From the IMG/VR virus record IMGVR_UViG_3300020450_000008: DNA of 64,000 nt. The stretch is one strand, 5' to 3'. Below are positions 14,402 to 63,239 of the stretch, piece after piece. The notes under the pieces are model-generated. The model saw only the letters and a list, made by a program, of their open reading frames with translations, did no database searches and was not told the DNA's origin. A program made the position numbers and the translations under genes. Source of the stretch: a virus. Taxonomy: Duplodnaviria > Caudoviricetes. The number at the start of each line of letters is the position of its first letter. Within the stretch, counting starts at the first letter, position 1.

Positions 14402-14617
14402 ATGAAACTAGTTAAAGTTGATAACAATTCAAATTTAGTAAAAGACGAAGAAACTGGTGCAGTTTTAAATAATAATGTTGAAGACGTAGAAAAGGCAAAA
14501 GAAATAAAAGAAAAAAGAATTGAAAAAGAAGAAGAACTTGTTCAATTAAAAAATGATGTAAGCGAGTTAAAAGATATGATGAAACAACTATTAGAAAAGA
14601 TGAATAACGATGGCTAG
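14402..14617 (+). CDS. Small conserved virion-cluster protein with coiled coil
   Basis: LVKV....NLVKDEETGAVLN followed by a coiled coil; GGAG SD-like upstream; coupled to the next ORF. Confidence 0.7.
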   Translation: MKLVKVDNNSNLVKDEETGAVLNNNVEDVEKAKEIKEKRIEKEEELVQLKNDVSELKDMMKQLLEKMNNDG

Positions 14618-15095
14618 AAAAACTTTTGTAGATTTAAGCGACACACTAAACGCTTTTAGAGTTAAGGCAAACCTAATCTCGTTCAATGTTGGAGATTTGG
14701 ATAGTCTTGCGGCATCACTACCTGATTCAGATTTAGTTCAAGCTATTAATCATTTAAACGGAGCTATTAGTGGAAATGACTCAGATATTGCGGCTCTACA
14801 AACATTTATTGGATTTGGTGGTGGAGGAGGAACAAGCCTTCTTCAACAAATATTAAATAATGATTCTGATATTGCTTCTTTACAAGTTGCAGATTCAGAT
14901 CTTTTAAATTTACAATCACAGATAACTAGCAATGATTCTGATATTGTTAATTTACAATCACAGATAACTGGTAATGATTCTGATATTGCTGCGATTAATA
15001 ATACTGGTTTAATAAGAACAGCAAGCTTAGCTATATTGAGATCTGATGGAAATGTAGTTAAAAGGATTTTTGGTTATACTGATTCAGGAGTATAA
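14610..15095 (+). CDS. Short fibre/coiled-coil protein with NDSDI repeats
   Basis: Four NDSDI(A/V) repeats in heptad register; 8 DS in 161 aa. Confidence 0.7.
   Translation: MARKTFVDLSDTLNAFRVKANLISFNVGDLDSLAASLPDSDLVQAINHLNGAISGNDSDIAALQTFIGFGGGGGTSLLQQILNNDSDIASLQVADSDLLNLQSQITSNDSDIVNLQSQITGNDSDIAAINNTGLIRTASLAILRSDGNVVKRIFGYTDSGV
14907..14990 (+). repeat. 42-bp tandem duplication (two heptads)
   Basis: aatttacaatcacagataact(agc/ggt)aatgattctgatattg(tt/ct) occurs twice in tandem. Confidence 0.9.
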
Positions 15096-15097
15096 CA

Positions 15098-16114
15098 ATG
15101 GCTTTTCGAAGACCTCTTAAAATTGAGAATGACAATCTTAAAGAAATGTCAGACGATGATATTCATAAATTACGTTTAAGAGCAATTGTTAATCATGGAA
15201 GAAAAAATTCAGTAAAAGTAAGTTACGTTTCAAATGGTGGTAACCTTGGAATTCTTCGTGATACAAGAAGAGTATCTACTAATGTTGTAGATCTTCAGAC
15301 AGCAGATTCTAATACTGCATCATCAACTACTCTTATCGAAACAAATTTCAGACACATGGATCTTCAGTATGATTCTCATTTCATGATGAGAATGGCTGAT
15401 AGTAATCTTATGAAATATCCTGTATTTTTTGACAGCGCGCTTGATGGTCAGCCTGAAGGCATAAGAGCAATGACCGAAACTGATTTTTATGATACCATAA
15501 TAAAGCCTGCAATAGATATAATTACAACTGGTAACATAAGTGACTCAACACAAGGGATCTACTATTTAAAAACGACAAACACTCCTACTTCAACTTTGAT
15601 AAATTCAAGTCCTATATTTACCGATACTACAGCAGATGTAACAAAATTCAATACCAAAGACAGTGCGGGTGAGTTTGTAGAACCATTAGACCAGCCAAGA
15701 ATTGAGCAAAATTATTACTTACATAAAGTTCAGTCAGACTCTGCTATATCACCTGGTGATAGACTTGCAAGACCTCTTCTTATTGGTGATATAAGTAATC
15801 ATGGTACAATTCAAGAAATGGATAGTAATTCTATTGATGATATGTTATGGCGAGGAATAAGATATGTTTCTCGAGATGTGAATGGTCATAAAATACGATA
15901 TCATATTGATTCAAGTTATTCTTCAGCGCCTGGAGGTAATAGAGTAGGAACTCTTGCTGTTGATAAATTTTATGACGCAGAAAAATTTATACAAAGACCA
16001 GTTGATTCAGCTGGCAATTCATATGGTGGATATGTTCCTTTTAGTGATACTGCAGATTCGACAAACTCACTTAGAATAAAAAGGGATTACGCTCTTAAAA
16101 TAACAAAAGAATAA
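15098..16114 (+). CDS. Hypothetical virion protein, DS-rich
   Basis: Long ORF with phage-like codon usage in the structural operon; 11 DS in 338 aa. Confidence 0.7.
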   Translation: MAFRRPLKIENDNLKEMSDDDIHKLRLRAIVNHGRKNSVKVSYVSNGGNLGILRDTRRVSTNVVDLQTADSNTASSTTLIETNFRHMDLQYDSHFMMRMADSNLMKYPVFFDSALDGQPEGIRAMTETDFYDTIIKPAIDIITTGNISDSTQGIYYLKTTNTPTSTLINSSPIFTDTTADVTKFNTKDSAGEFVEPLDQPRIEQNYYLHKVQSDSAISPGDRLARPLLIGDISNHGTIQEMDSNSIDDMLWRGIRYVSRDVNGHKIRYHIDSSYSSAPGGNRVGTLAVDKFYDAEKFIQRPVDSAGNSYGGYVPFSDTADSTNSLRIKRDYALKITKE

Positions 16115-16129
16115 AATGGGATTTATATT

Positions 16130-16555
16130 ATGGCATTATTCTCAAAAGGTTTCGTAACCGCAAACTTTGTTGACCCCTCAAAATCAGTAATACAAGTAAT
16201 TTATAAAGAAGGCGATGAATTCGTTAATCACTATGTAGATAACGCATGGGGTCATCCGGAGTTTGAAGCTTTACTAAAATTAATTGACCTTGAAGAAATA
16301 GAAAAGAAATGGGACGAAGGTATGAGATCTCAAGAAGAAACTCAAACCAAAGAAAAAAGCCCACTTGAGACATCAGAAGGTGTAATCAATTTTATAACAG
16401 AAAATAATACTAATATAAAATATGTTTTTCCTTTTAAAGTTCAAGCATTAAAAATAGCAACGACAAAAGAAGATAAAAAGAATATTCAAAGTGCAAAAAC
16501 AATATTTGAAGTTATCTCAATATTAGCAGATCATGAAAGGTCTGTAAATGGCTAA
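16130..16555 (+). CDS. Hypothetical protein at the head of the glycosyltransferase cassette
   Basis: 141-aa ORF overlapping the next start by 8 nt; no function recognised. Confidence 0.65.
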   Translation: MALFSKGFVTANFVDPSKSVIQVIYKEGDEFVNHYVDNAWGHPEFEALLKLIDLEEIEKKWDEGMRSQEETQTKEKSPLETSEGVINFITENNTNIKYVFPFKVQALKIATTKEDKKNIQSAKTIFEVISILADHERSVNG

Positions 16556-17306
16556 CTATATTGTTTACCTTCAATGGGGTGAAAGATACACACAACAACA
16601 CATTGATAGATTATTTGATCAAGTAAATAAAAATTGCTCAGTTCCTTTTGAATTTATGACAATGAGACAATGTCATGTCGGTGATGATTTTAATCATTTA
16701 CAATACATACAAAATCAAACTTATAGAGGTGATGGTGATCCAGAGTCTTCTATAACAGAGGAAACACAATCTATACTAAGAGAAGATGCTGGTGGGATGT
16801 GTCATTTTAGAAAATTTTTAATGTTTAGATATGATTGGGATTATTTTGAAGATGATGATACTATTTTATACTTGGATTTAGATTCAATAATACTAAAAGA
16901 TCTAGCATATTTTTTCGAACTCAAAAATGATAAACCTTGGATAGCTCGAAGTTATGATATGGATGAGAATGGTATGTGGCAAAGATTATACAGATACAGA
17001 AGCTGTCCATATTATAATAGTTCTGTTCTGGTTTGGAAGCCAGGACAAAATAGAAAGATTATTAATGAATTTAAAAGATCAGATATTGTATACAAAAATT
17101 TTTATCAGTATGGAATGATAGATAATTGGCTACATCATAGATTTGGACCTTGGGCCTACAATGATAAAAACCGTAATTGGTTTAATACATATCCTCCTGA
17201 TATTGTTAATACTAATGACAATAAAGTACTTACAGATGACACTATAATTAGATCCCTTGCGGGTATGACACAAAAAGAAAAGGATGAAATATTATGCTTG
17301 TCATAA
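16548..17306 (+). CDS. Glycosyltransferase, GT-A fold (GT8-like), paralog 1
   Basis: N-term VYLQWGERY; ILYLDLD (DxD motif); YNSSVLVWKP; D.W acceptor-site-like segment. Confidence 0.75.
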   Translation: MANYIVYLQWGERYTQQHIDRLFDQVNKNCSVPFEFMTMRQCHVGDDFNHLQYIQNQTYRGDGDPESSITEETQSILREDAGGMCHFRKFLMFRYDWDYFEDDDTILYLDLDSIILKDLAYFFELKNDKPWIARSYDMDENGMWQRLYRYRSCPYYNSSVLVWKPGQNRKIINEFKRSDIVYKNFYQYGMIDNWLHHRFGPWAYNDKNRNWFNTYPPDIVNTNDNKVLTDDTIIRSLAGMTQKEKDEILCLS

Positions 17307-17920
17307 AAGAAGAAGATGCTGGTTTATTTGAATCATTAAAAAACGCTTTTTTTAGATTAGACGGTAAGTATCAATTTTTAAGAGAAGAATTTTTAAAAAG
17401 TTTATCGCCAAGAATCATGCAAAGAACTATCTGGTGTTATGATGAGCTAGAAAAGTTGCGTATGGAATTTAAGAAGATTGGCGTATTGAACAGTGGTTAT
17501 CAGCATTTCCAAGGGATGTTTTGGAAACAACTTAAAGCCGAACATGTTTTTCTTTATAACCTGGATGAAAATGTAAAACATATTAATTGGGCTACTTTAG
17601 ATTATTTAAAAAAAGATAATATTCAATTAAACCAAAGAACTTTAGACATAACTATTGATAAACAATTCATAGATAATCCAGATTTGCTAGTAAACCTATC
17701 TTGTGAAAATACTTTTGACATGGCTGGATCTTGGGAAAAAGATTCATTCAATTCGCAGCCTATATATGCATTCAGTGGTACAAGACTTTATGAAAGAGGT
17801 CACATTAATTTTTGTGATAATTTAAAAGAATTTAAAAACACTCTTCCAAAATTTGATGAGATACTATATGAAGCTGAAAGAGAAGACTGTTTTTTTGTTA
17901 TAGGAAAATTTAATGAATAG
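17294..17920 (+). CDS. Class I SAM-methyltransferase-fold protein, paralog 1
   Basis: IGVLNSG motif-I-like strand, acidic residue after beta2 (YNLDE), LLVNLSCEN, GHIN....L.EFK; paralogous to 18562-19140. Confidence 0.5.
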   Translation: MLVIKEEDAGLFESLKNAFFRLDGKYQFLREEFLKSLSPRIMQRTIWCYDELEKLRMEFKKIGVLNSGYQHFQGMFWKQLKAEHVFLYNLDENVKHINWATLDYLKKDNIQLNQRTLDITIDKQFIDNPDLLVNLSCENTFDMAGSWEKDSFNSQPIYAFSGTRLYERGHINFCDNLKEFKNTLPKFDEILYEAEREDCFFVIGKFNE

Positions 17921-18572
17921 AATAATTTGTGCTAAGTGGGGTGATTATCAAGATAATACTATAACACAGTTATTTAATAATGTAAAGGAAAAAAGTTCAG
18001 TTCCTTTTACTTTTGAGTGTTTTACTGAATTTAGCGATGAATTTGATAAGTACCAGTATCAAAGAGATCACTGTCATCATTGGGATCAAGGTGGTCTTCC
18101 ACATGCTAATAAACTTCAGCTATTTAAATTAGATGAAAAGTTTGATAAAGAAGACAAAATACTTTATCTTGATCTTGACGTAACGATTACTGATGATATA
18201 GGTTACTTTTTTGAATTACCAAATGATAAGCCTTATATAATTTACAATCACTGGTGGTATGAACAGAATGATGATTGGAAAAGACAGTATAATATTGCGC
18301 ATTGTCCTTTATATAATAGTTCTGTAATGCTTTGGAAACCAGGACAAAATAAACCCATATATAGCTTTGTAAAAGAAAATACTGATAAAATATTTTTTAC
18401 GTATAGAGGAATAGATACCTTTATGTTTCATACATTTGGTCCATACTGTACAAAACCCAGAGCCAATCACTTTAATTATTTTAATGACGGCATAATTACA
18501 TCAGAAAGACTTCATGGTGAGGCAACGGGGATCGTTCATTCTTACGAAGGAATAGAAAAGAATGGAATATAA
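17913..18572 (+). CDS. Glycosyltransferase, GT-A fold (GT8-like), paralog 2
   Basis: ICAKWG; ILYLDLDV; CPLYNSSVMLWKPGQN nearly identical to paralog 1; GIDTF. Confidence 0.78.
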   Translation: MNRIICAKWGDYQDNTITQLFNNVKEKSSVPFTFECFTEFSDEFDKYQYQRDHCHHWDQGGLPHANKLQLFKLDEKFDKEDKILYLDLDVTITDDIGYFFELPNDKPYIIYNHWWYEQNDDWKRQYNIAHCPLYNSSVMLWKPGQNKPIYSFVKENTDKIFFTYRGIDTFMFHTFGPYCTKPRANHFNYFNDGIITSERLHGEATGIVHSYEGIEKNGI

Positions 18573-19140
18573 ATTTGCTGAAAGACTAGAAAGAGTTTTA
18601 AATAAAACTATTTGGTCATACCCTTTTGCCATTGAGCATGTACGTGATCAATTAGGAACTACAGAATTTAAGATTCAAAGATGGTGGGCTGATAAAATTG
18701 ACCTTAACGAAAAACGTGTCAATATATTAAACTCTGGCATTGGTTTTTATTCAGTTCCTTTTGCAGAAGAAAAAGGAGCAATTGAAATAAACACATACGA
18801 TATGGATCCTATGACTAGAGAAATAATTACTGGTAGTAATCATAATATTTGTAACACGATATTTGATATAGATGATATTAGTGAAGCAGAAGTTTGGATC
18901 AATACGAGTTGCGAACATACCTATCCTATGTATGATATAATTCCAAAAGGAACAACATGTGTAATGAGTTCTAATAATTTAAGAAAAAGAGGACATATTA
19001 ATCCCGCTTCTAGCCTTGATGAATTTAAAGAACAATTATATATTTCTGAATTGATAGAAATGGACATTTTAACTTTTGATTTTGAAGATGATGAAGGCAA
19101 AAGAAGTTATGACCAATACTTAGTGATAGGAGTAAAGTGA
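18562..19140 (+). CDS. Class I SAM-methyltransferase-fold protein, paralog 2
   Basis: VNILNSGIG motif I, YDMDP motif II, WINTSCEH, SSNN...GHIN..SLDEFKEQ, closing YDQYLVIGVK strand. Confidence 0.6.
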   Translation: MEYKFAERLERVLNKTIWSYPFAIEHVRDQLGTTEFKIQRWWADKIDLNEKRVNILNSGIGFYSVPFAEEKGAIEINTYDMDPMTREIITGSNHNICNTIFDIDDISEAEVWINTSCEHTYPMYDIIPKGTTCVMSSNNLRKRGHINPASSLDEFKEQLYISELIEMDILTFDFEDDEGKRSYDQYLVIGVK

Positions 19141-20003
19141 AAGAAGTAAATGGGCATGAACTTATTCCATGGGGTAAACCATGGTTTATTGAATCCTTAC
19201 TTGATTATAGAGGCAATATAACTTTTTTTGATCAAGAAAAAATACCTACTAAAAAAGAAATCATTGATATATTAACTGTGGTTCACGAAAGAATGCCTCA
19301 CAATAATATGAAATGGCATTACAAATTAAAAGTTTTAGGACCTGATGATGAGGAAATAAAAAGAAAACTTACAATAGGTTCGGTATGTCTTGAAAATGGA
19401 AGAGGTGCTGTAAAAAAATTTGATACACCAGAAAAATGGAAACCAATAGAAGAAGCTTATGATAAATGGAGAGCATACCAATTAGATGAAACAAGATGGA
19501 AGCAAAATAAGCACCATGTATGTGAAGATGGAACAATCATACCTTTTCCACACCAAGGATCCGATAATCCAGATATTAAAGGATTTAACGAGCAACTAAG
19601 AGCACCATGGGTAATATTATATCAAAAGGGAAAAAATAATTTATATCCAAGTATAAAGAAAAAAACACTTAAGTTATATGAACGGGGTGGTTGGGATAGT
19701 AAAGTAAAATCAGGAGAAATAGATATGAACATGGCGGCTATACAAATGGGACAGCACAGTACATTGACCTCATTGTTAGCATTAGAAGCTGGATTTGATG
19801 TATCTTATTGTAAATGTTTATTTCAGCCAGGACTAAAACAACTACAAATAGATGAAACAGATTTTGCACTTTCAATAGGTTATCCTACTTTACCTAGAAG
19901 ATCTCACTCACTGAGCTCTATACTACCTCCTTGTGAGGGTTATAAATATTCCGGAAGGCTTGGTAGATACCGACCAAAAATAAATGAAATAATTGAATGG
20001 TAA
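19137..20003 (+). CDS. Nitroreductase-fold (FMN oxidoreductase-like) protein
   Basis: LLDYR.NITFF..EKIP.KKEI..IL; P..N..W.Y...VLGP; RAPWVI; LLALEAGFDVSYCKC; SIGYP; GTG start overlapping the previous stop. Confidence 0.6.
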   Translation: MKEVNGHELIPWGKPWFIESLLDYRGNITFFDQEKIPTKKEIIDILTVVHERMPHNNMKWHYKLKVLGPDDEEIKRKLTIGSVCLENGRGAVKKFDTPEKWKPIEEAYDKWRAYQLDETRWKQNKHHVCEDGTIIPFPHQGSDNPDIKGFNEQLRAPWVILYQKGKNNLYPSIKKKTLKLYERGGWDSKVKSGEIDMNMAAIQMGQHSTLTSLLALEAGFDVSYCKCLFQPGLKQLQIDETDFALSIGYPTLPRRSHSLSSILPPCEGYKYSGRLGRYRPKINEIIEW

Positions 20004-20925
20004 AACTATGAAGAAGCGAATAATATTTTCAATGTATATTGATATTCCCGAAGACAAACTTGATGAAACAGGATATTCAAGAAGTGCTGCTGGTAATAGA
20101 CATCGAACTCCAAGAGCGGCGGAAACCAAAGACAAACTTAAAGCATTTAAAAATCATTTAATGTGGACACAAAAGGCTTATGCTGATCAGTGTGATGCTG
20201 ATTATATGCTTTTTGTTACTGATAAAATGTGGTTGGATTACTATATTAAATGTAGACAATATCATGATAAAATACCAATGTATCATATACTTAATTATTA
20301 TAAGCATCATTTGATGTATGTTTTAGCCGATGAATATGATGAAGTTTTTTATTGTGATATTGATATAATTCCTGTTACTAAAGAAAACATATTTGAAGTA
20401 CATGATATGTCTTACTTTTGGTCAAAAAATAATAATGAATTGGCTGAATATGGAAAAAATTGTGATCTTACAGAATATTTAAGTTGCGATAGAAATCCAG
20501 CAACTAAATATTGGAATGCATACGCATTACTTTTACAAGAAGGTTATGAACCTGAATGCGATGTAATTAATACTGGAACTATGATAGGTGGTAAACAAGT
20601 TATAAAAGAAGTCAACTGGCCAAATGAGCTTCCAGTTCTAATTGAAAAATTAAAATATTTACAAGAAGATAAAACCACTATGTTTCCAGATGCCTTACAT
20701 AGTAGATTTGCTTTTGATAATGAAACAATGTTTAGCTATCTTATTAAAGCAAAGGGTTTTAAATATGCATCTCTTACCGATGCATGGCATGGAAGATTGC
20801 CTGACAATGGAATAAATCCTGATCATAAAATTATTCATGCGATTAATAAGAAATTTGAATTTATTTGGCCAGATGCATATTCTGAATATGATGGTCGAAG
20901 CTTTGATGAAACCAGGCCATATTAA
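19993..20925 (+). CDS. Glycosyltransferase, GT-A fold (GT34/GT8-like); start may be the ATG at 20008
   Basis: YA..CDADY.LF; YK..L....YDEVFYCDIDI (DxD); INTG; DNETMFSY. Confidence 0.7.
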   Translation: MNGKTMKKRIIFSMYIDIPEDKLDETGYSRSAAGNRHRTPRAAETKDKLKAFKNHLMWTQKAYADQCDADYMLFVTDKMWLDYYIKCRQYHDKIPMYHILNYYKHHLMYVLADEYDEVFYCDIDIIPVTKENIFEVHDMSYFWSKNNNELAEYGKNCDLTEYLSCDRNPATKYWNAYALLLQEGYEPECDVINTGTMIGGKQVIKEVNWPNELPVLIEKLKYLQEDKTTMFPDALHSRFAFDNETMFSYLIKAKGFKYASLTDAWHGRLPDNGINPDHKIIHAINKKFEFIWPDAYSEYDGRSFDETRPY

Positions 20926-21593
20926 TGAAAGTATTTTGTTTAAGAATCGGGAACAAGTATGGACCCGAATATGAAAGATATATTGAAAAAAAGTTAGAAG
21001 ATTATGATTTAACTTGGGTTAGAGAGCCTCTTGATAAACGTGTCGCTTTACAATGGAATAAAATGTTTTTGATGGGTCTTGATATTGATGAGCCCATATG
21101 TGTAATTGACATTGATTTAATATTTCTCAATGACTATAAAAAGTTATTTGATTATCCAATACGCAGAGGTCAGTTTTTAACAATAAGAGCTTGGTGGGAT
21201 TCGTATCAAGATTTTAAAATCAATGGTGGTTTTTTTAAATATTACCCAAAAGACTGTAAATTTATGTTAGATAAGTTTATTAGCAATATTGAATATTGGC
21301 AAAGGATTTATATTACTAAAGGATTAACAACAGGTCCTGTGAATGGAGAACAATTTTTTGTAGAACAACATGCTGTTGAAGAACTCGACATACTTACATT
21401 TGATGATAGATGGGTAACCAACTGGAGTAATACTCCTGATTGGAATAATCAAGTTCATACTAAATATAAACAATATTATAATGAAACTTTAATTAGCGAT
21501 GATAAATTTAATGACCATATTAAATTAATACACTTTACAACTTCCAGAAACAAACCACATGAATGTGAACTGTTTAGCCACTTGTACACTTGA
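20925..21593 (+). CDS. Glycosyltransferase, GT-A fold, paralog 3
   Basis: FCLRIGNKYGPEY; WNK..L; CVIDIDL (DxD); INGGF; GEQ.F; IKLIHFT...KPH C-terminal motif typical of GT8-like enzymes. Confidence 0.75.
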   Translation: MKVFCLRIGNKYGPEYERYIEKKLEDYDLTWVREPLDKRVALQWNKMFLMGLDIDEPICVIDIDLIFLNDYKKLFDYPIRRGQFLTIRAWWDSYQDFKINGGFFKYYPKDCKFMLDKFISNIEYWQRIYITKGLTTGPVNGEQFFVEQHAVEELDILTFDDRWVTNWSNTPDWNNQVHTKYKQYYNETLISDDKFNDHIKLIHFTTSRNKPHECELFSHLYT

Positions 21594-21598: not shown

Positions 21599-21606
21599 TA
21601 TAAATA
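21599..21606 (+). promoter_or_regulatory. T4-type late promoter followed by a leader hairpin (21615-21640)
   Basis: Exact TATAAATA intergenic; downstream GAGGTT-TAGA-AACCTC stem-loop, then AGGAG SD. Confidence 0.8.
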
Positions 21607-21668: not shown

Positions 21669-21875
21669 ATGGCACAACAGATTATAAACATTGGTGCAAT
21701 TGCCAATGATGGAACAGGTGATGATCTTAGAACTGCTGGTAACAAGATCAATCAAAACTTCACTGAACTATATTTAAAAGATTCTGATGGCATTATTGAC
21801 AAAGCCGAACTGCAAGCAGCAATGAATGCTTCAGATAGTTTTGGCTCCTTTAAGTCCGCAATACTTGCACTTTAA
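21669..21875 (+). CDS. Mini-protein consisting of a T4 gp9/gp10-type N-terminal module
   Basis: INIG..ANDGTGD.LR.AG.KIN.NF.ELY is the gp9/gp10 N-terminal motif; only 68 aa; strong SD. Confidence 0.8.
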   Translation: MAQQIINIGAIANDGTGDDLRTAGNKINQNFTELYLKDSDGIIDKAELQAAMNASDSFGSFKSAILAL

Positions 21876-22579: not shown

Positions 22580-25500
22580 ATGCCGTCATTAATTCAGATA
22601 AAAAGATCAGCCACCGAGCTCAAACCCGATAAGTTAAGGGTTGGTGAACTTGCCTACTCATATGCTGATAGTTCATTAAAACTATTCATAGGTGTTGGAA
22701 ATGCTGATTCATTTCAAATGGCAGACAGCATTCAGGTTATTGGTGGTAGATTTTACACAAATTTATTAGATGTTGATAGTGCTGGTGTATCTGATCCTGG
22801 TAAATATTTACTATTAGGAGATTCAAGAAATACAGACTTTTTAAAACTTGATTCGGCTAGTATCAATGTATTAAGAACTATAGACAATTTAGTAGTTCCT
22901 GTTGGAACTGATTCTCAAAGACCTTCACCCTTTGCCGTAGGTCAAATAAGATTTAATGTTTCAACTACTCAATTTGAAGGTTATGATGGAAATGCTTGGG
23001 GATCTTTAGGTGGAATAAAAGATATTGACCAAGATACCTTTATAAGTGCAGAAACAAGTCCAAATGCCGACAATGATGATTTAAGATTTTTTACTGCTGG
23101 TACTGGTCGATTAGAAATTGATCAATCAGGAGAGATTGTTGCTGCTGCTGGGTATAGTCCTGATAGTACTCAATCTCTTACAACAAAAGTATATGTTGAT
23201 AACGTTAAAGCAGGTAATCCTTTAGATGGAGATTGGTCAGATGGCGCATACAGATTTTTTAAAGATAGTGACAGAGTTACAGACGTTTTAGATGGTTTGA
23301 ACGAAGCTCTTAACAATGTGAGAAATAATACTTTTGTAAGAGCTTTATCATTTGTTGCTAATCCATTGCAAGGTGGTGCAGGATTTACAACTACGCTTAC
23401 TATTACTAATGATGGTAATCCAAATAGATTTGATATAGACTGGGGTGATGGAAGTGTAGATTCTGGAGTTGCAACTACTACGCCAACACATGTATATACT
23501 GATCCACTTTCAAGTCCAGCTTCAATTGCTATAAGAGCATACAATACAAATGCAAGTGGTGTTGGAAATGAAGCACATAAAACAAATGAAAACTATGTTA
23601 CAATATTTACGGCCGATCCAGTTTCTGATTATGAATTATTCAGAGCACCAACTGGTGGTGTTGCGTTAACTGGCAATGACCTGTATGTTATTGAAGGTCA
23701 ACCACTTTACCTAGACAATGAAACAACATTTACACAAGTTGCTAACAAAGCTGGATTAGCCTTTGTTACATACAATATTGACTGGGGTGATGGTACTGCT
23801 GCTCAAACTATTGCAAGTGATTCAGATGCTGGAGGTGTGATTGGTACGCGATTATCTCATACATGGGGAGCTGGAACAAACACAGGAACTGGTAGAGATA
23901 ATGTTATTTTAACTCTTGCATCTCATACAACTGCTGATCCAGCAACTATTCCAAATACAAATACAAAACAATTAAAAGTTTATGATCCCAATATATCAGC
24001 TCCAAATGGACTAAACACTAAAACTATTTCATTTGTTGGTAATACAGGAATTGATCCTAGACTTCCTGCAGGATTTACTAATAGAATAGGTGGTGGGGCT
24101 ATAACAACTGTAGGTTCTGCAGTTAATAGAACAACCTCTACATCAGGTACTGTCGACACTAGTATTATTTCAAGTTTTGCATTTTCAGCAAACTCCGGAG
24201 TTTTATCAGCCCAAGTTAATAATGTTGCTAATGGTCAGGTAACAATGGACACAACAAGTAAAAATGGATCATACACAAGTTTAAATGTTACAGATCATAG
24301 TGATTATAATCTTCTAAACGCTGGTGGTACAACAATTCCATTTGCTTCAACAATATATCACCCAGGACTTTATTTTGGATTTAAAGCGAGAATTCAAAAA
24401 ACTGCATCAGCAATAAACACTGGTTTAAATAGTTTTGCACTAAATCATACAACAACTGGTTCAACAAATATAGTAGAGTTTGTAAAAGATGATTTAACAG
24501 CTACACCAACAACAAGTGCTGGAACATTAACACAAAATGTAGCTGGTACTTTTAGATATGTAAGTGGAATTCCTTACTATAACACTGGATCTCCAAGTTT
24601 AACATTAAGTGGCGTGCAAATTTCAAACTGGATAGGAAAGGCTTATCGTGGCACTGCACAACCTGTACAAATTCGAAGTGGAACAAATTATGAAAATACT
24701 TCACAATCAGCAATAGTATCAAATCTAAATTATACTTATGCGCAAGTTGATGGATCAACGACATATTTGACTGGAGGAATACCACAAGAAGATACAGGAA
24801 ATGGTGTGGCGTATTCAATTGGTAATTTAACGATTCCAATAACTTCAAATAGTGTACGAACAGTCGAAGATCTTAGAATTAGAACTTTAAACGTGAATGG
24901 AACAGGTTCATACACAAACATAACAGCAACAAAAGTTCAAGTACATACAGCGTCTCAGTCTGGAGTAAATGAAATTAATACTTCTGTAAATGTTGGTGGA
25001 ACATATTCAGATGGTGGAGTTAGAGTATTTGACTTTAACGGAGCAACTATAAATACTCCTAGTTATAGTGGTTCAACTAATTTTTATACAAATAGTCCAT
25101 ATACTGAAGCTACTGATCCAGGAGTTGTAGGAACAAAAGAAGCAACAGTAAGACTAGGAATACTAAAACATGATGTAACTAATTATAGCTCTGGATTTCT
25201 TCCAGTAGGACCAAATAGATCTGGCGATACTGGAAATCAATATTTTACTATGGCATTTCGTAGAACTGCAGTTGCGAACATTGGAATAAACATAACAAGT
25301 GCTACTGGTGTTGTAGGAGTATTTTTAGCCGCACCAGGAACATCAATTGATAACACGAGCACTTTAAACGGTTGGCTTGATTGTTCGGTACAATTTGCAG
25401 GATCTGGAGTTCCAGGAGCAAATATTGGACAAGGTGGAAATGGAAGTAATGGAAGTGCAAGTACTGGAGGTGATAGAATACAGTCAGGAGTTGGATTAAG

Positions 25501-51730: not shown

Positions 51731-53311
51731 ATGAGTACAGAAGATCAAAAGGCGTCCACCGTTACTTTATGTAAAGGTGTTGATACTACAAAATTCATGG
51801 AAGATATGGCTAAAGGTGGCTATGAGCTTCACGATGAAAATGTACCAAGCCTAAGAAATTTTGATTATGTATTATCACCAACTCAAATAAACACTTTAAA
51901 ATCAGATTCAAGAATAATTGATATACGATATGGTACTCAAGAAGAGAATGGAATAAAATTACTTCCTAGTGCTCTTAGAGCTCCATTTGATTTTAAAAAA
52001 GATGGAACACTTTCTGGTGGTAACTGGGGTCTGCCTGCATGTATAGACAATAGTGATTTATGGTCTGGTGTTGCAGGAACTTTAAATAATTATAGAGCAC
52101 CATTTACATTAACAGGAGCTAATGTGGATGTTGTCGTACAAGATAGTGGAATACAAACTGATCACCCAGAATGGAAAGATACTCCAAGAGAAGGAAACGT
52201 GGTTGGTGGTTCTTCATTTGGAACATCAAGGTATCAAACAGTCGACTGGCCAACTATAAGTGGACAACAAGCTTTTTATACACAAGATGCAAACTTTCAT
52301 AGAGATTTAGATGGGCATGGGACTCATGTTGCATCTATAATTGCTGGGAAACTGTATGGTTGGGCTAATGAAGCAAAAATTTATAGTTTAAAACTTAAAA
52401 ATTTATCTGATACTACTGGATTCGAAACAAATCATTCTTTAACAATGTTAAGGCATTGGCATAATTCAAAATCAGGTTCAAGACCAACTATTTGTAATAT
52501 GAGCTGGACTACAGTTTCTACGTATGCAAACATTGCTGGTGGAGTTTATAGAGGATCAAACTTTTCAGGAAGCAAAGGTGATGTAGCAAATGGTTCTTTA
52601 CAACAGTATGGAATAGTCCCAATAACAGCAGATGGTAGTGGTGATTATTTTGTTCCTATAAGAGATGCTTCAATTGATGCAGATATAGAAGATTGTATAG
52701 ATGCAGGTGTAATAATGGTAGGCGCTGCCGGAGATTATAGAATGCGAATGGATATTTTTGGTGGTGCAGATTATGATAATTATTTTAATTACACTGACAT
52801 AAGTGGTTTAGCGCAAACAAGAAGATATCATAGAGGTGGAACACCAGGTGCAACTGATAGCGTTATATGTGTTGGAGCAATAGGAGCTTCATATAATTCA
52901 GGAAAAGAAAATATTTGGGAAAATGGAAATAGAGGTCCAAGAATTGATGTATTTGCACCAGGTCAATATATCATGGGTGCCTTATCAACTTCACATTCAT
53001 CAAATAATGCAGCTGGTAATTCTAATTATCCTTTAGATTCTAATACATTTAAATCAAATGGTTTTACAGGATCAAGTTTTGCAGCTGCTCAAGTGACAGG
53101 TTTATTAGCCTGTTTATTACAAATAAGACAAAATTTAACACAAGCTGAATGTTTACAATTTTTAAAAGATAATGCACAAAATAATAGATTACAAGACGAT
53201 ACTACAGGAACACCTGCAAATGATTATGCTAATGGAACAGCATTACATGGTGCAGCTAATAGATTTTTAAAACAACCATTTAATGGTTCAATAGCTTTTG
53301 GATTTAGATAA
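51731..53311 (+). CDS. Subtilisin-like serine protease (S8) with N-terminal propeptide
   Basis: VDVVVQDSGI (Asp), DGHGTHVAS (His), GSSFAA (Ser); VGA...R.DVFAPG..I; oxyanion position reads AAGD. Confidence 0.88.
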   Translation: MSTEDQKASTVTLCKGVDTTKFMEDMAKGGYELHDENVPSLRNFDYVLSPTQINTLKSDSRIIDIRYGTQEENGIKLLPSALRAPFDFKKDGTLSGGNWGLPACIDNSDLWSGVAGTLNNYRAPFTLTGANVDVVVQDSGIQTDHPEWKDTPREGNVVGGSSFGTSRYQTVDWPTISGQQAFYTQDANFHRDLDGHGTHVASIIAGKLYGWANEAKIYSLKLKNLSDTTGFETNHSLTMLRHWHNSKSGSRPTICNMSWTTVSTYANIAGGVYRGSNFSGSKGDVANGSLQQYGIVPITADGSGDYFVPIRDASIDADIEDCIDAGVIMVGAAGDYRMRMDIFGGADYDNYFNYTDISGLAQTRRYHRGGTPGATDSVICVGAIGASYNSGKENIWENGNRGPRIDVFAPGQYIMGALSTSHSSNNAAGNSNYPLDSNTFKSNGFTGSSFAAAQVTGLLACLLQIRQNLTQAECLQFLKDNAQNNRLQDDTTGTPANDYANGTALHGAANRFLKQPFNGSIAFGFR

Positions 53312-57807: not shown

Positions 57808-59352
57808 ATGGCGGAAGAAAATGCAATAAAGCTTTTTGGTTTTGAAATCAAAAGAGCAAATAAAAATAAAAGTGAAAAACTAAGATCTGTAGTTCCTCCA
57901 GCTGGCGATGATGGTGCTGGATACGTTACCGCAAACGCTAGTTATTATGGGCAATACGTCGATATTGATGGTAACAATGCTAAAGATAACTATTCATTAA
58001 TAATGAAATATAGAGGAGTCGCCACTCATCCGGAAGTGGACGCGGCAATAGAGGATATTGTCAATGAAGCAATAGTAGTTGATGATGAAGCCGATGTGGT
58101 TTCATTAGCGTTAGATGACATAGAAGCTACTGATCAAATAAAAGAATCAATAAAAGAAGAATTTAAAAACATTTTATCCATGCTTAATTTTAATGAGCTG
58201 GGACATGATATATTTAAAAGATGGTACACAGATGGAAGACTTTATCATCATTTAGTACTTCCTGATGGTAATGAAAAAGGTGGTATTCAAGAAATACGTT
58301 TTATCGACGCTCTTAAGATGAGAAAAGTAAGAGAAGTCAAGAAAGAAAAAGATCCTAAGACAAATACAGATATTGTAAAAGAAGTAAAAGAGTATTATAT
58401 ATTTCAAGAGAAACCAGGTGTAAGTGCATTAAATAACGCGGTAAAGTTTCATCTTGATTCGATAAGTTACGTAACATCTGGTTTGTTAGATGAAAAAAGA
58501 GCCAAAGTTGTTTCACATTTACATAAGGCAATAAAGCCTATAAACCAACTGAGAATGATGGAAGACTCTCTTGTTATTTACAGATTAGCAAGAGCCCCGG
58601 AAAGAAGAATATTCTATGTTGATGTTGGTAACCTTCCAAAAGGTAAAGCCGAAGAGTACATGAAAAGTATAATGACTAAGTTTCGAAACAAACTTGTTTA
58701 TGATGCTAACACTGGTGAACTTAAAGATGACAGAAAACATATGTCAATGCTTGAAGATTTTTGGCTACCAAGAAGAGAAGGTGGTAGAGGTACCGAAGTA
58801 TCTGCATTACCAGGTGGTGAAAATCTTGGACAAATAGATGATATAGTATATTTTCAAAAAAGAGTTTACAGAGCTCTTAATGTTCCCATAAACAGATTAG
58901 AACAAGAAGCTCAGTTCTCACTTGGTAGAAGTACAGAAATATCTCGTGATGAAGTTAAATTTCAAAAATTTATCGATAGATTAAGAAACAAATTTTCTTC
59001 ATTGTTTATGGATATTCTTAAAAAACAACTGATACTTAAAAAAGTTATTACTGAGGCAGATTGGGATTCTTGGAAAGAAGATATAACTGTTGAATATGCT
59101 CGAGATAATTACTTTAGCGAGCTTAAAGAAAGCGAATTATTAAAGGAAAGAATACAGACATTAGATATGATTCAACCTCATGTTGGAGAATACTTCACAA
59201 AAGACTGGGTTATGAAAAATGTTCTTAAACTCAGTGAAGAAGATACCAAAGAACTTGATAAAGAAGTTGATGATGAAAATCAAGATGAAGTTGATAAAGC
59301 TGAAAAAGGTGCACCTGCTAAAGAAGTAGATAAAGATTCAGATGAAGCATAA
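57808..59352 (+). CDS. gp20: Portal vertex protein gp20
   Basis: LFGFEI; HPEVD.AI.DIVNEAIV; WY.DGR.Y.H; NQLRMMEDSLVIYR..RAPERRIFYVDVGNLPK.KAE.Y; EDFWLPRREGGRGTE. Confidence 0.98.
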   Translation: MAEENAIKLFGFEIKRANKNKSEKLRSVVPPAGDDGAGYVTANASYYGQYVDIDGNNAKDNYSLIMKYRGVATHPEVDAAIEDIVNEAIVVDDEADVVSLALDDIEATDQIKESIKEEFKNILSMLNFNELGHDIFKRWYTDGRLYHHLVLPDGNEKGGIQEIRFIDALKMRKVREVKKEKDPKTNTDIVKEVKEYYIFQEKPGVSALNNAVKFHLDSISYVTSGLLDEKRAKVVSHLHKAIKPINQLRMMEDSLVIYRLARAPERRIFYVDVGNLPKGKAEEYMKSIMTKFRNKLVYDANTGELKDDRKHMSMLEDFWLPRREGGRGTEVSALPGGENLGQIDDIVYFQKRVYRALNVPINRLEQEAQFSLGRSTEISRDEVKFQKFIDRLRNKFSSLFMDILKKQLILKKVITEADWDSWKEDITVEYARDNYFSELKESELLKERIQTLDMIQPHVGEYFTKDWVMKNVLKLSEEDTKELDKEVDDENQDEVDKAEKGAPAKEVDKDSDEA

Positions 59353-62300
59353 TGGCAGACATATTAAAATACAGATTACCAGATGGAACAGAGGCAGAAG
59401 TAACATCTAACACTTCTAGTGTAACTCTTCCTTTCACAACTCCACATTTAGACTTTACTGTAATACTCGATCAACTTGCTGTTAATCCAGGTGAGGTTCG
59501 TGGTTGGTATGTTTCGTCAAGTACTTACTTTTCTCCTACATTATCAGGCAATTACAATTATAGACTTGAACTTATTGAGGGACAAACTAGAACAGTTACT
59601 ATACAAACTGTTGATGCTAAGAATACTTCTGATTTAAATTCAGGAAGATTTAGTTCTTTTAGAGATAACTTTTCTATAACAGTAACAAGAGGATCTGCTC
59701 CAGCAGATTCATCTGCTGATTCAACTACTCAATCATTTTTAACTTTTCCAGATAGTGATGCAAGGTTAACAATTGAAGGAAATCAGATTGTTTTAACTGA
59801 TAGTAATTTTCAGTTTAATATTTCTGCACTTGATGTTATTGATTCTGCATACATTCAAGCCCGACAAGCATTTAGTACTTTTGATTCAAATGAAGTTGTT
59901 GCATTAATAAATGCAAATACACCTACTTTAATTGAAAATTCAGTTCCTCTGGATTCTTCTACTGTAAGTGCCATAATAAACAATCAAGTAGATTCTAACT
60001 ATGTATCAGGAAGACAAATAATAGGAAGTGATTCAGCTTCTATAATTACTATTGTCAATAGCATAGTTGATTCAGCATATGTTTCACTAAGAGATAGAGT
60101 ACAGGATTCTGGGTTTGTAACTGGAATCGTAGATGCTGCATATGTCCAAGCAAGAGATAGAATAAGAGACTCTGGTTTTGTAACAAATGTAATTGATTCA
60201 AATTATATCATATCTATACTTGACGACAGTTCATTAACTATTGATGGTAATGGCTTAAATAACGGTGTAACTATATCGGATGGTTCTATTGTTATGAGAA
60301 CAGGAACTGGAAGTGTTGCCGCTATTGATATGTATTGTGAAGTTAATAATATACATAGAGTAAGATTAAAGGCACCTTCACATTCTAACTTCAGTGGTAA
60401 TCCAGATGTCATATTACCAAACACTTCCGGAACTATTGCTCTTACATCAGATATTACCGGAACCGTAACAGCTTCTTACATTCAAGCAAACCAAACAAAA
60501 TTTTTAGATTCATCTCTTGCAACTCAACTTATAGATGCTTCTTACATTCAAGCCCGACAGCTTTTTGATTCAGATACTTTAAGAGACTCTGGTTTTATAA
60601 CTGGAATAATAACTCCAGAATATATTCAAGCAAGACAAATGTTTGACTCAGATACTTTAAGAGATTCTGGATTTATAACTGGAATTATAGATTCAGACTA
60701 TATTAATAATAGAACCGCTTCTGGAACTGATTCTACAGCTGTATTAGCAATGATAACCACAACAATTACTCCAGGTTATATTCAGGCAAGACAGCTTTTT
60801 GACTCAGATACTAAAGTAGATTCGGCCTTTGTAACTAGTATAGTTGATGCCGCTTATGTTCAAGCAAGAGATAGAATAAGAGACTCTGGTTTTGTAACTG
60901 ATATTTTATTACCTAATGAGTTTGCAAAAGATAGTGCAGTAAAATTATACTTTGCTGGTACCAAAAAATTTGAAACAACAGACTCAGGCGTTGATGTTCA
61001 AGGTGATCTTACACTTGTACAAAATAATGCTAGAATTAAACTCGGTGGACTGATACTTAGAGATAGTAATGGAGCACTTGCAATAAAAGATTCAGCAGGA
61101 ATTGCAACCTCAATAACTTTTTCAAATCAGTTTGATTCTTCAACAGCATTATCTTTAATTGACTCTGCGTATGTACAGGCAAGACAAGTTGATCTTCAAA
61201 GAGAGTCTGGTTTTATAATTGGTATTGTGGATACAGCATATGTTCAAGCAAGACAGAGTTTTGGCGCTGCTGGTGATTCCACGAGCACGATTGCTATTAT
61301 ACAAAGCGTTGTTAATAATTCTTATGTTCAGGCTAGACAAACTAATTTTGATTTTTTAGATTCAGGAGAAGTTATAAATCTTATAGATTCTAATTATGTT
61401 CAGGCAAGGCAGGTTGATCTTCAAAGAGACTCTGGATTTGTAACTGGAATAATAACTCCAGAATATATTCAAGCAAGGCAACTATTTGATTCAGATACCG
61501 ATACTTTAAGAGATTCTGGATTTATAACTGGAATAATAGATTCAGATTACATTAACAATAGAACTTCAAGTGGTGTTGATTCTGCTACCGTTTTGTCAAT
61601 TGTTGATTCAGATTATATATCTGCAGTTGCAGGTGGATTTGCTAGTCCTAGATTTAAAGACTTTAAATATATAGCAACAAATGCACAAACTACATTTACT
61701 GGTAACGATGCTAATAGTAAAACACTGGCATTAAAAGATAGCAACTTTGCTGTATATTTAAATGGTATAAGACTATTAAGATCTGATTATACATCAACAA
61801 ATACAAGCGTTGTTTTGGATAGCGCGGCAAGTACTGGAGATGAGATAGTAATTAGTGCAATGACAGCTGATTTTCGTGGTTCAGCTGATCTTATCGATTC
61901 CGCTTATATACAAGAGAGAATTGGAGGAGTTATTTCTCCAATATTTACAAACTTTAAATTTATTGCTGATGGAAATCAAACAGAATTTTTTGGTAACGAT
62001 GCTAATGGAAATGGTCTAACTTTTGATTCACATAACTTTAATGTATTGCTTAATGGTATACAATTAGATAGATCAGATTATCATGCTGATGCTGGTGCTA
62101 ATAAAATATTTTTAGTGTCAGGTGCTACTGCATCTGATGAACTTGTAGTTAATACACTTAAGTCAACCATAACATCAACGTTACAAGCAGTTAAAGATAT
62201 AGTAACTCCAGAATATATTCAAGCAAGACAGCTTTTTGACTCAGATACCGATACCAATCTTTCATCTACTGATAGTTTATCTGAAGGATCAACTAATTTG

Positions 62301-63239
62301 TATTTTACAAATGAAAGAGTTGATGACCGTGTAGGCTCACTAATAACAGCAGGCGTTAATGTTGCAACAACGTATGACGATGCAGCTGGAACACTTGAAA
62401 TAAGAGTCCCATTTGAAAACATTGATGATAGAGTTGGAACTATTTTAACTGCCGGTAACGGTATTAATATTAATTATGACGATCCAAATGCCACAATTAC
62501 AATAACTAACACACTTAATACAAGTGATTTTGCAGATTCAGCAACCGTAATCAGTTTGATCGATTCAGCTTTTGGACAGTTAAATGTTGGAGTTATTGAT
62601 ACTGATAACGTATTTCTTCAAGGTGCGACAGATCACGCAGGTATTGCTTTTGGTAGTACTTCTGTTCTTCCTTTTAGAAACGGCAATTATTCAAACGCTA
62701 CTACTGACTTAGGTCACTCTGTTGCCGGCGCTTTCAAAGACGCTTACTTATCGGGTGGACTATACGTTGGTGGAACTGGGTCGGCAAACTATTTAGATGA
62801 CTATGAAGAAGGAACATGGACTCCTACGATTGTTGGTACTTCTAATACTCCTACCTTTTATAATCGAGTTGGAAGATACACAAAAATAGGTAGGTTAGTA
62901 ACACTTCAATGTTTTTTGCAAACTAATGTAGCTCCAACATATTCAAATGCTAATACTCAATTTAAAATATCAGGAGTTCCTTTTAATCTTCTAGCTATTG
63001 GTTATACAGGTGCTCAAGGAACTGTAAATTCACAAGCATTAAGATATGTTTCTGGTGACAACGACCAAAATGCTGGTGCTAGTACTGGTGGTGGTCATCT
63101 AACTTGTGGTATACATGCTGATGAACAATTAATATTTCATGTTACTGGTAGTGGTCAATCAAGAGGTTTTGTTGAAAATAGTGGCACAACTTCAGGATTT
63201 ATTCTTGAAGCAACAATAAGTTATTTTACAGATGCGTAG
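59352..63239 (+). CDS. Fibre protein (1295 aa), extremely DS-rich
   Basis: About 47 DS; RDSGF.TG/IDSxYVQAR repeats; two repeated beta domains; C-term AN.LDDYEEGTWTP...G.YTKIGRLV tip; TAATG coupling to gp20. Confidence 0.85.
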   Translation: MADILKYRLPDGTEAEVTSNTSSVTLPFTTPHLDFTVILDQLAVNPGEVRGWYVSSSTYFSPTLSGNYNYRLELIEGQTRTVTIQTVDAKNTSDLNSGRFSSFRDNFSITVTRGSAPADSSADSTTQSFLTFPDSDARLTIEGNQIVLTDSNFQFNISALDVIDSAYIQARQAFSTFDSNEVVALINANTPTLIENSVPLDSSTVSAIINNQVDSNYVSGRQIIGSDSASIITIVNSIVDSAYVSLRDRVQDSGFVTGIVDAAYVQARDRIRDSGFVTNVIDSNYIISILDDSSLTIDGNGLNNGVTISDGSIVMRTGTGSVAAIDMYCEVNNIHRVRLKAPSHSNFSGNPDVILPNTSGTIALTSDITGTVTASYIQANQTKFLDSSLATQLIDASYIQARQLFDSDTLRDSGFITGIITPEYIQARQMFDSDTLRDSGFITGIIDSDYINNRTASGTDSTAVLAMITTTITPGYIQARQLFDSDTKVDSAFVTSIVDAAYVQARDRIRDSGFVTDILLPNEFAKDSAVKLYFAGTKKFETTDSGVDVQGDLTLVQNNARIKLGGLILRDSNGALAIKDSAGIATSITFSNQFDSSTALSLIDSAYVQARQVDLQRESGFIIGIVDTAYVQARQSFGAAGDSTSTIAIIQSVVNNSYVQARQTNFDFLDSGEVINLIDSNYVQARQVDLQRDSGFVTGIITPEYIQARQLFDSDTDTLRDSGFITGIIDSDYINNRTSSGVDSATVLSIVDSDYISAVAGGFASPRFKDFKYIATNAQTTFTGNDANSKTLALKDSNFAVYLNGIRLLRSDYTSTNTSVVLDSAASTGDEIVISAMTADFRGSADLIDSAYIQERIGGVISPIFTNFKFIADGNQTEFFGNDANGNGLTFDSHNFNVLLNGIQLDRSDYHADAGANKIFLVSGATASDELVVNTLKSTITSTLQAVKDIVTPEYIQARQLFDSDTDTNLSSTDSLSEGSTNLYFTNERVDDRVGSLITAGVNVATTYDDAAGTLEIRVPFENIDDRVGTILTAGNGININYDDPNATITITNTLNTSDFADSATVISLIDSAFGQLNVGVIDTDNVFLQGATDHAGIAFGSTSVLPFRNGNYSNATTDLGHSVAGAFKDAYLSGGLYVGGTGSANYLDDYEEGTWTPTIVGTSNTPTFYNRVGRYTKIGRLVTLQCFLQTNVAPTYSNANTQFKISGVPFNLLAIGYTGAQGTVNSQALRYVSGDNDQNAGASTGGGHLTCGIHADEQLIFHVTGSGQSRGFVENSGTTSGFILEATISYFTDA
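60540..61570 (+). repeat. Near-identical DNA repeats encoding LFDSDTLRDSGFITGIITPEYIQARQ-type units
   Basis: actccagaatatattcaagcaag occurs at ~60613, ~61454 and ~62205; gatactttaagaga(c/t)tctgg occurs three times. Confidence 0.85.

Follow-up and report, generated by a model that had tools for sequence, protein, structure and literature searches.

A glycosyltransferase/methyltransferase cassette and an Asp-Ser excess in the distal virion proteins of an uncultured marine T4-like phage: a candidate virion O-glycosylation system

Pelagimyophages and cyanomyophages, which rank with the most abundant phages of the ocean, characteristically carry islands rich in glycosyltransferase (GT) genes in their tail-fibre region. 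What these islands do has so far been guessed, usually as modification of the host lipopolysaccharide (LPS). We asked this question of a 64,000-nucleotide stretch of DNA (hereafter the window) from the IMG/VR virus record IMGVR_UViG_3300020450_000008 (Duplodnaviria; Caudoviricetes). The gene content identified with PHROGs and Pfam is a T4-type structural module, every substantial open reading frame (ORF) is on the + strand and the GC content is about 0.34; the source is an uncultured marine T4-like phage of the pelagimyophage type, and the window is its structural module. Its island holds a cassette of GT-like and methyltransferase (MT)-like genes (16548-21593), and the surrounding virion proteins carry an excess of the dipeptide Asp-Ser (DS). 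A DS signature on the presumed substrates, together with a defined GT/MT set, makes the open question testable. The observation is real and unusually strong; its interpretation as O-glycosylation of the virion at DS by the cassette enzymes is plausible and unproven.

The distribution of DS was analyzed protein by protein, the expected number being obtained by shuffling the sequence of each protein. Nine ORFs, totalling 10,238 amino acids (aa), are DS-rich: a baseplate wedge protein of the gp7 region (PF23786; 6836-7918; 7 DS vs 2.8 expected), a gp8-like baseplate wedge protein (7959-9302; 7 vs 2.5), a fibritin-like protein with N-D-S-D-I repeats (14610-15095; 8 vs 2.1), the conserved 338-aa protein P338 (15098-16114; 11 vs 3.3), a 1012-aa virion protein (22580-25618; 11 vs 6.0, with z 2-5 in its orthologues), a 3633-aa giant fibre (25628-36529; 76 vs 25), a 2158-aa tail fibre protein (36567-43043; 37 vs 13.4), an 834-aa tail-fibre-like protein after gp15 (49224-51728; 22 vs 7.1) and a 1295-aa fibre directly after the portal gene (59352-63239; 47 vs 12.7). 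Together these distal virion proteins contain 226 DS vs 74.5 expected (z 19). DS is their top dipeptide by a wide margin, the runner-up staying below z 7. The reverse order, SD, is flat (74 vs 75); DT is depleted (44 vs 76, z -4.2), as are ES (6 vs 27) and DD. The remaining 24 ORFs (about 10,217 aa), which include gp5, gp6, gp25, VrlC, a protein with four lectin domains, neck, sheath, tube, portal, terminase and the cassette, contain 41 DS vs 52 expected. The first-pass annotation had described a DS excess in the virion proteins and a lack of it in the enzymes; both stand, the seven cassette ORFs having 4 DS vs about 5.7, too few to call depletion. It had also started the region at 14610, which leaves out the two DS-rich baseplate genes at 6836-7918 and 7959-9302.

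This excess does not originate in the DNA. AGY codons account for 29% of the Ser codons within DS and 31% elsewhere, and enrichment in GANTC is confined to codon phase 0; these two results exclude a DNA-level cause, in which GAY-TCN codons would be favoured for making GANTC, the CcrM/HinfI site. Since Ser codon choice is unchanged, selection for DS bears on the protein and not on the DNA. Recent tandem duplication is likewise excluded as a source, only three DNA-level tandem repeats, all short, being found in 50 kb of fibre genes. What is selected is a feature of the peptide, namely Asp with Ser right after it. One of the three repeats lies at 14892-14988, where a 42-bp unit present in 2.3 copies encodes L-Q-S-Q-I-T-x-N-D-S-D-I-x-N of the fibritin-like protein.

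Repetitive fibres are not the only carriers of the excess: it is also found in non-repetitive proteins of unrelated folds, namely the gp8-like, gp7-region, P338 and 1012-aa proteins. About a quarter of the DS sites of the fibres fall in a recurrent motif, hh-D-S-[ADN]-Y-[IV]-x, and the giant fibre contains runs of a 9-residue repeat, x-D-S-x-Y-I-x-x-x (for instance at 35093-35707). When the periodic motif is removed from the fibres, DS remains at about twice its expectation (124 vs about 58). The flanks of DS are alike in repetitive and non-repetitive proteins, with V/A/I/L at position -1, A/D/S/N at +1 and an aromatic residue at +2. Ala is the most frequent residue after DS, and DS[AILVMT] (92 vs 30) and DS[other] (134 vs 45) are both enriched 3.0-fold, while DT[AILVMT] is found 22 times vs 31 expected. 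These counts bear on the comparison with the O-glycosylation sequon of Bacteroidota, D-(S/T)-(A/I/L/V/M/T), to which glycans are transferred en bloc in the periplasm (PMC8550257, PMC12871550), and which the first-pass annotation had named among its precedents. The likeness is limited to Asp right before the glycosylated residue and to Ala as the commonest residue after DS in the window. The Bacteroidota system accepts Thr and restricts the third position; the analogy fails because in the window Thr is avoided and the third position is unrestricted.

The history of the sites was then considered in proteins that can be aligned. Seven P338 sequences of clade A, which share 38% pairwise identity, have 9 to 16 DS each. 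These sites occupy 40 distinct alignment columns, 19 of them unique to a single sequence and none universal; they are shared at about the background rate, yet their count is 3-4 times the expectation. gp8 evolves more slowly, and five of its DS sites are fixed in the clade that bears the cassette; at these positions the outgroups have ES, GT, GD, SS, NS or gaps. A domain of about 65 aa shared with podophage fibres has DS in the window at positions where the podophage fibres, which have no accompanying cassette, show DT, DA, SS, TS or AS. DS as a general property of fibre folds is excluded, no excess being present in the SAR11 and roseobacter podophage fibres that share the domain, nor in HTVC008M, Mosig and C48C1. 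Taken together, the pattern fits selection for the dipeptide itself, as a sequon or similar recognition motif would call for; inherited structural positions account for it less readily. For the periodic repeats of the fibres a structural origin is still conceivable.

The cassette consists of seven + strand ORFs with overlapping or abutting codons, situated between TATAAATA motifs (the T4 late-promoter consensus) at 7926 and 21599, and its GT and MT genes are arranged in pairs with overlapping codons. GT-a (16548-17306) is a GT8-like glycosyltransferase of the GT-A type with DLD, NSS and HxFGP motifs. It is followed by X-a (17294-17920), which is class I S-adenosylmethionine (SAM) methyltransferase-like and a paralogue of X-b; by GT-b (17913-18572), a GT8-like paralogue of GT-a with 34% identity; and by X-b (18562-19140), whose structure model has the class I SAM methyltransferase fold. 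Between X-b and GT-c lies an orphan ORF of 288 aa with a GTG start (19137-20003). GT-c (19993-20925) is glycosyltransferase-like with an invariant DxD, and GT-d (20925-21593) is nucleotide-diphospho-sugar transferase-like with IDID, NGG and HF..NKP motifs. The assignment of four GT-like and two MT-like genes made in the first-pass annotation is correct at the level of fold, as indicated by the models of GT-a and X-b, the DxD motifs and paralogy.

Among 26 members of the GT-a/b family, 16 match the Pfam family GT8 (PF01501) at E <=0.01, the best at 1.2e-6. GT-a of the window reaches 19 bits against PF01501, under the gathering cut-off of 24.3, and no Pfam match was found for GT-b, GT-c or GT-d; to judge from these profiles the cassette GTs are divergent relatives of GT8, not clean PF01501 members. 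The DxD residues D110/D112 are invariant across the 26 sequences, and the DLD, NSS and HxFGP motifs are invariant or nearly so in the family; DxD is invariant also in GT-c (D122/D124) and GT-d (D62/D64). The AlphaFold model of GT-a (predicted local distance difference test, pLDDT, 91) resembles retaining GT-A enzymes of the GT8/GT24 type. Foldseek matches it to glycogenin, LgtC, 3tzt, XXYLT1, UGGT and A64R with E 1e-7 to 1e-5 and a template modelling (TM) score of about 0.5, and further to GlyE/GlyF and WaaJ/WaaO; the A64R domain of the chlorovirus PBCV-1 is 2p6w. Several of the nearest solved structures (PBCV-1 A64R, UGGT, XXYLT1, glycogenin, GlyE/GlyF) act on protein-linked glycans. GT-b presumably has the same fold, given its paralogy to GT-a. 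The nearest ESM Atlas neighbours of GT-c and GT-d are clusters of GT8 or nucleotide-diphospho-sugar transferases. GT-d aligns with GT-a in hhalign with a probability of 62%, and the profile comparison of GT-c with GT-a gives a match around DxD only. GT-c is the best conserved gene of the cassette (65-77% identity) and is 30% identical to a gene of Mosig EXVC030M.

The model of X-b has pLDDT 84, and its top 50 matches in the PDB are all SAM methyltransferases (50/50, E 2e-8 to 1e-6). The alignment, inspected for the glycine-rich loop of motif I and an acidic residue after strand 2, conserves N-S-G-x-G-F, a variant of the canonical GxGxG, and Y-D-M-D-P. Searches of Pfam and PDB sequences gave no match for X-a or X-b, and a profile search for named MT homologues returned unnamed metagenomic proteins only. 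The orphan ORF is present only in the window genome and in an IMG/VR contig 91-98% identical to it; no match was found in Pfam, PHROG or PDB. Against PDB sequences, PHROGs and GenBank phages the cassette proteins give almost nothing, the exception being GT-c in Mosig. For the GT-a/b and X families, the 50,697 GenBank phage records contain no homologue apart from one weak match of X-b in Ralstonia phage RsoM2USA (25% identity, E 5e-6); GT-a has 27 homologues, all metagenomic. In 185,579 species genomes the GT-a family has a single match, in an 8.9-kb contig (L074, CAJXMP010000108.1) with GT/MT cassette genes throughout and a GC content of 0.33, binned into the metagenome-assembled genome of an uncultured Lewinella. 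This contig is probably a mis-binned phage fragment, not a clue to the host.

The position of the cassette suggests when it is expressed. The motif TATAAATA occurs 11 times in the window, which is not above chance overall; all 11 copies are on the + strand, and seven lie in tiny intergenic gaps upstream of genes (4509, 7926, 21599, 36525, 46583, 55277 and 57106). An eighth is found at 19941, near the 3' end of the orphan ORF and just before GT-c. The copy at 7926-7933 (+), 33 nt ahead of the gp8-like gene, is likely, from its placement, to mark the start of a transcription unit running through the cassette. The copy at 21599-21606 (+) stands right after the cassette, ahead of a 68-aa gp9/10_N-like gene (21669-21875) downstream of it. 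From 7959 to 21593 the genes are contiguous; no terminator-like site was found between them, nor a further intergenic TATAAATA after 7926 up to 21593. For these reasons, namely gene contiguity, the lack of a terminator-like site and the positions of TATAAATA, the cassette is predicted to share a late transcript with gp8, VrlC, the fibritin-like protein, P338 and P141. The last of these is a conserved protein of 141 aa (16130-16555) that overlaps the start of GT-a and has no DS. The first-pass annotation had placed the cassette inside a late structural unit, in agreement with this prediction. P141 may be a tail assembly chaperone, to judge solely from the annotation of the gene at the same position in C48C1.

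Do the cassette and the DS excess occur together in related phages? The isolates closest to this phage are Phage C48C1, whose gp6 is 39% identical, cyanomyoviruses and Pelagibacter phage HTVC008M; all belong to Kyanoviridae. Using a P338 profile we collected 56 IMG/VR loci, to which hidden Markov models of each family and DS statistics were applied. In long contigs the core GT-a, X-a, GT-b, X-b, GT-c and GT-d is found at the identical place, preceded by VrlC, a small ORF, the fibritin-like gene, P338 and P141, and followed by the gp9/10_N-like gene, an LtfC-like gene, the 1012-aa protein and the giant fibre. Contigs with this core show the DS excess in the same orthologues every time, and none in VrlC or the enzymes. 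In the P338 tree one clade (support 100/99, 20 rows) holds all strong GT-a/b genes and the DS-rich gp8 orthologues, as well as all DS-rich P338 proteins except that of L035, a 4.3-kb contig on a long branch that gives no information on the cassette. The other 31 rows, L035 aside, have 0-3 DS vs about 2 expected and carry other GT/MT sets. Pairs of GT-a/b and MT genes thus co-occur with the DS excess in all related contigs long enough to judge. L073, with a GT8-like gene sister to GT-a/b, has DS-rich fibres with the same motif (46 vs 11.5 and 17 vs 3.9); its sister L042 has no DS excess in the visible proteins, the fibres lying beyond the contig. Four contigs with a more distant GT8-like subclade (L058, L051, L037 and L060) have moderately DS-rich proteins. 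No DS excess exists in HTVC008M, which has 2-oxoglutarate (2OG) oxygenases only and no GTs, in C48C1, or in Mosig, whose P338 orthologue has 0 DS. Equally DS-rich relatives lacking the cassette had been named in advance as the observation that would tell against a link, and the comparison of the 56 contigs did not refute the idea. The association across relatives expected in the first-pass annotation is thus partly borne out: the two features co-occur, essentially through one origin, and homologues of GT-c, GT-d and the MTs are also found with no DS excess.

Two further observations concern the island in these relatives. In Mosig EXVC030M (L015, 48320-89147) about 25 enzymes lie between VrlC and the tail fibres, including Asp/Arg hydroxylases, 2OG dioxygenases, radical SAM proteins, a DegT-type sugar aminotransferase, a carbamoyltransferase, an acetyltransferase, an epimerase and nitroreductase-like proteins; homologues of GT-c (30% identical, as above), GT-d and the MTs are part of this large sugar-modification island. 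Neither DS nor any other dipeptide stands out in that region. An alternative over-represented dipeptide was not found in any sister clade either, the best being DG with z 4-5 in one group. Moreover, in most of the 56 contigs that reach far enough, a P338 homologue and a gene of about 150 aa are followed by varying GT and/or MT families, so that the site after P338 looks like a conserved insertion hot spot, or else P338 is functionally tied to the enzymes.

We regard virion O-glycosylation at DS by the cassette as the best explanation of these data; it is unproven, and our confidence in it falls somewhat short of an even balance. It ranks first because it is the only model linking both novelties of the clade, and because precedents exist. 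According to this model, the late-expressed and probably soluble, cytoplasmic GT-A enzymes GT-a to GT-d would draw on host uridine diphosphate (UDP)-sugars in the cytoplasm to assemble a short glycan, O-linked to the Ser residues of exposed Asp-Ser sites. The acceptor context would be loose: D-S preceded by a hydrophobic residue or Ala and followed by A/D/S/N, in many cases with an aromatic residue next. As targets we propose the distal virion proteins, that is the baseplate periphery, the whisker-like protein, P338 and the fibres. Each MT, whose translation is coupled to that of a GT8-like GT, would place an O-methyl group on the sugar attached by this GT, as PBCV-1 A064R does. The folds of GT-a and X-b, the order of the genes, the protein-level DS excess limited to distal proteins, the co-occurrence in the clade and the turnover of sites are observations; DS as the acceptor, the order in which the GTs act, the sugar as methyl acceptor and a biological role in shielding, stability or adhesion are what we infer. 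If the model is true, no earlier self-glycosylation system will have been described in T4-like phages. The system would offer a simple sequon for glyco-engineering, lead to a re-reading of 'auxiliary' glycan genes in marine viromes, and matter for adsorption, for how stable particles are in seawater and for the grazing or decay of virions. A wider form of the proposal is more speculative, and we advance it with some doubt: an abundant marine T4-like clade, uncultured so far, may possess its own cytoplasmic protein O-glycosylation pathway with a minimal DS sequon, giving a methylated oligosaccharide coat on fibres and outer baseplate whose sites are gained and lost like those of animal-virus glycan shields, and the other GT/MT sets of such islands may be alternative virion-glycosylation chemistries, not host-LPS enzymes.

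Several results weigh against glycosylation at DS. The sheath, VrlC and the lectin-domain protein are not enriched in DS, though exposed. D-S and Y-I recur with equal regularity in the 9-residue repeats, where Q or E occasionally takes the place of Ser, so that D-S there looks like a structural turn; the periodic hh-D-S-x-Y-[IV] motif could be purely structural. GT-c, GT-d, MT or other GT8-like genes occupy this spot in Mosig and about 30 sister contigs, where DS is not in excess; therefore the island has a function that does not need DS. The co-occurrence of cassette and DS has essentially one evolutionary origin, a pattern that phylogeny alone could generate. Contigs of the L058 type combine a DS-rich fibre with GT8-like genes that are only distant, and L027 and L028 have GT-a/b with a weak DS excess (z about 2) in their visible proteins. 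The LPS-core enzymes LgtC, WaaJ and WaaO rank equally with the other fold neighbours of GT-a. A complex prediction of GT-a with a 73-aa DS fragment scored 0.00, which is no evidence either way.

In a first rival reading the GT/MT genes remodel the O-chain of the host LPS, or the capsule, late in infection, the DS excess being an unrelated structural feature of the fibres in this clade. Remodelling could serve superinfection exclusion or keep the progeny from sticking to debris, and the GTs would sit among fibre genes since both track the type of host surface. This is the published reading for GT8 genes between VrlC and gp14 (PMC7029224); it agrees with the presence of LgtC, WaaJ, WaaO and RfaI among the fold neighbours of GT-a, and it remains strong because related phages keep GT/MT genes there without DS, including sugar-modifying sets such as the aminotransferase, carbamoyltransferase and epimerase of Mosig. 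We nevertheless hold it somewhat less likely than glycosylation at DS: it leaves unexplained a DS excess that is specific to a clade and to the residue order and found in unrelated folds, the turnover of its sites, and the presence of DS in place of DT, SS, TS or AS. The genes also lie in what is probably a late structural unit, not among early genes, although late expression is still compatible with remodelling. Alternatively DS may be a structural or physico-chemical motif fixed in the distal proteins of the clade, for instance an Asx/Ser turn before a beta strand, possibly binding Ca2+/Mg2+ or a host glycan, with a GT/MT activity that does not involve DS. The flanks have the character of a turn then a strand (V/A/I/L at -1, Y/F at +2, I/V at +3) with the 9-residue periodicity, the five gp8 sites are fixed across the clade as structural positions would be, and small polar turn residues occupy the homologous positions in podophages. 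What makes this improbable in our judgement is that the other pairs known to form turns (SD, NS, DG, DT) show either depletion or no enrichment, that the orthologous folds of HTVC008M, Mosig, C48C1 and the sister contigs manage without DS, and that in P338 the positions change at the background rate with the count remaining high. Should glycosylation at DS be refuted, so strong a dipeptide bias in fibres would still call for a structural explanation. Finally, the GTs and MTs might modify phage DNA or make a small molecule, as passengers in the structural region. Phage GTs classically glucosylate hydroxymethylcytosine DNA; the T4 DNA glucosyltransferases have the GT-B fold. GT-a of the cassette is a GT8-like GT-A enzyme, the cassette is in a structural unit and presumably late, and DS is left unexplained, which makes this last possibility very remote.

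Known systems offer precedents for parts of virion glycosylation at DS. Mycobacteriophage GTs encoded near structural genes reportedly O-glycosylate virion proteins made in the cytoplasm, as Freeman et al. are said to have described in Cell Host Microbe in 2023. That system is reported to differ in belonging to actinobacterial siphoviruses and in targeting capsid and tail tube, not fibres, and it is said to have neither a defined dipeptide sequon nor paired MTs. Passages of PMC12801897 and PMC11256854 cite virion glycosylation in mycobacteriophages. In the window, as in viruses that glycosylate themselves, GTs are co-located with structural genes and co-expression is predicted from the TATAAATA bounds. 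PBCV-1 A064R joins a GT-A domain to a second GT and to a class I MT that methylates the added rhamnose, and acts on capsid glycans (PMC9614988). It resembles the cassette (as A064R with A061L) in its DxD-containing retaining GT-A domain, 2p6w being among the top fold matches of GT-a, and in coupling a GT to a SAM methyltransferase of the just-added sugar in a virus-encoded, soluble form (PMC9614988). It differs in that it belongs to a eukaryotic giant virus, serves N-linked glycans of the major capsid protein, is expressed early, is a single multidomain protein where the window has separate genes, and involves no DS motif. SdgA and SdgB glycosylate Ser next to Asp in the cytoplasm (PMC3794999); as proposed here, Asp-flanked Ser on fibrous surface proteins is O-glycosylated, with a protective effect (PMC3794999, PMC8561734). 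These bacterial enzymes are of the GT-B/GT4 type, add N-acetylglucosamine and act on long uninterrupted (SD)n tracts (PMC3794999, PMC8561734), whereas the window has isolated DS sites, SD at its expectation and a GT-A fold in GT-a.

Closest to the window is the host recognition cluster of pelagimyophages, in which GT8 glycosyltransferases among the fibres were read as modifying the host O-chain (Zaragoza-Solas et al. 2020, PMC7029224). It is the same island, from VrlC to gp14, with GT8 genes interleaved with fibre genes in relatives such as HTVC008M and Mosig, and the paper reports no Asp-Ser bias, GT-MT pairing or link to virion proteins (PMC7029224). The island of the window is likewise a variable VrlC-to-gp14 region with fibres and GT8-like genes, VrlC/DUF4815 (9313-14400) forming the left border of the cluster; the cassette and fibres lie between this gene and the T4 neck protein (47376-48350). 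We found no report in the literature of the DS signature, of the GT-a/b and X families, of their pairing or of a link between them. The gene island is thus already known, and the families, the pairing, the signature and the link appear to be new. The first-pass annotation, made without database searches, knew of no such system in T4-like phages, a view to be narrowed in the same way: the DS link is unreported, and the GT8 genes of the island have been published as host O-chain modifiers (PMC7029224).

The fibres also hint at the host. In its distal domains the 1295-aa fibre shares 32-53% identity with tail fibres of SAR11 and roseobacter podophages, which hints at host range and at exchange of modules between phage families. 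Because of these matches, sequence comparison suggests that the host is more likely SAR11-like than a member of Bacteroidota, a further point on which the Bacteroidota analogy probably does not hold. What this fibre shares with the podophage fibres is a C-terminal domain and the repeated domain of about 65 aa. Its gene, immediately 3' of the portal gene, is in an unusual position for a T4-like phage.

The rest of the window (assigned with PHROGs and Pfam) completes the T4-type module. Pieces of a gp5-like hub and an amidase occupy 26-4508, where the baseplate hub is divided among three ORFs; the middle one (937-2490) has an N-acetylmuramoyl-L-alanine amidase domain in place of the T4 lysozyme domain. 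They are followed by gp25 (start 4534) and gp6 (start 4992). VrlC/DUF4815 is a giant baseplate protein with 11 DS vs 12 expected, hence no enrichment. The 1080-aa protein with four concanavalin-A-like (Laminin_G_3) domains at 43324-46566 (6 DS vs 6.4) is probably a carbohydrate-binding receptor protein. Downstream lie gp13, gp14 and gp15 (46617-49210), and, after the 834-aa fibre-like gene, a protease of the subtilisin family (51731-53311; Peptidase_S8, E 2e-26) in the late module. TerS, TerL, sheath and tube are found downstream of this protease, and the portal gene starts at 57808. The subtilase gene stands between a DS-rich fibre-like gene and TerS; it was considered as a DS-linked, clade-specific enzyme and dropped, since its homologues, annotated 'subtilisin-like serine protease', are common to many cyanomyoviruses.

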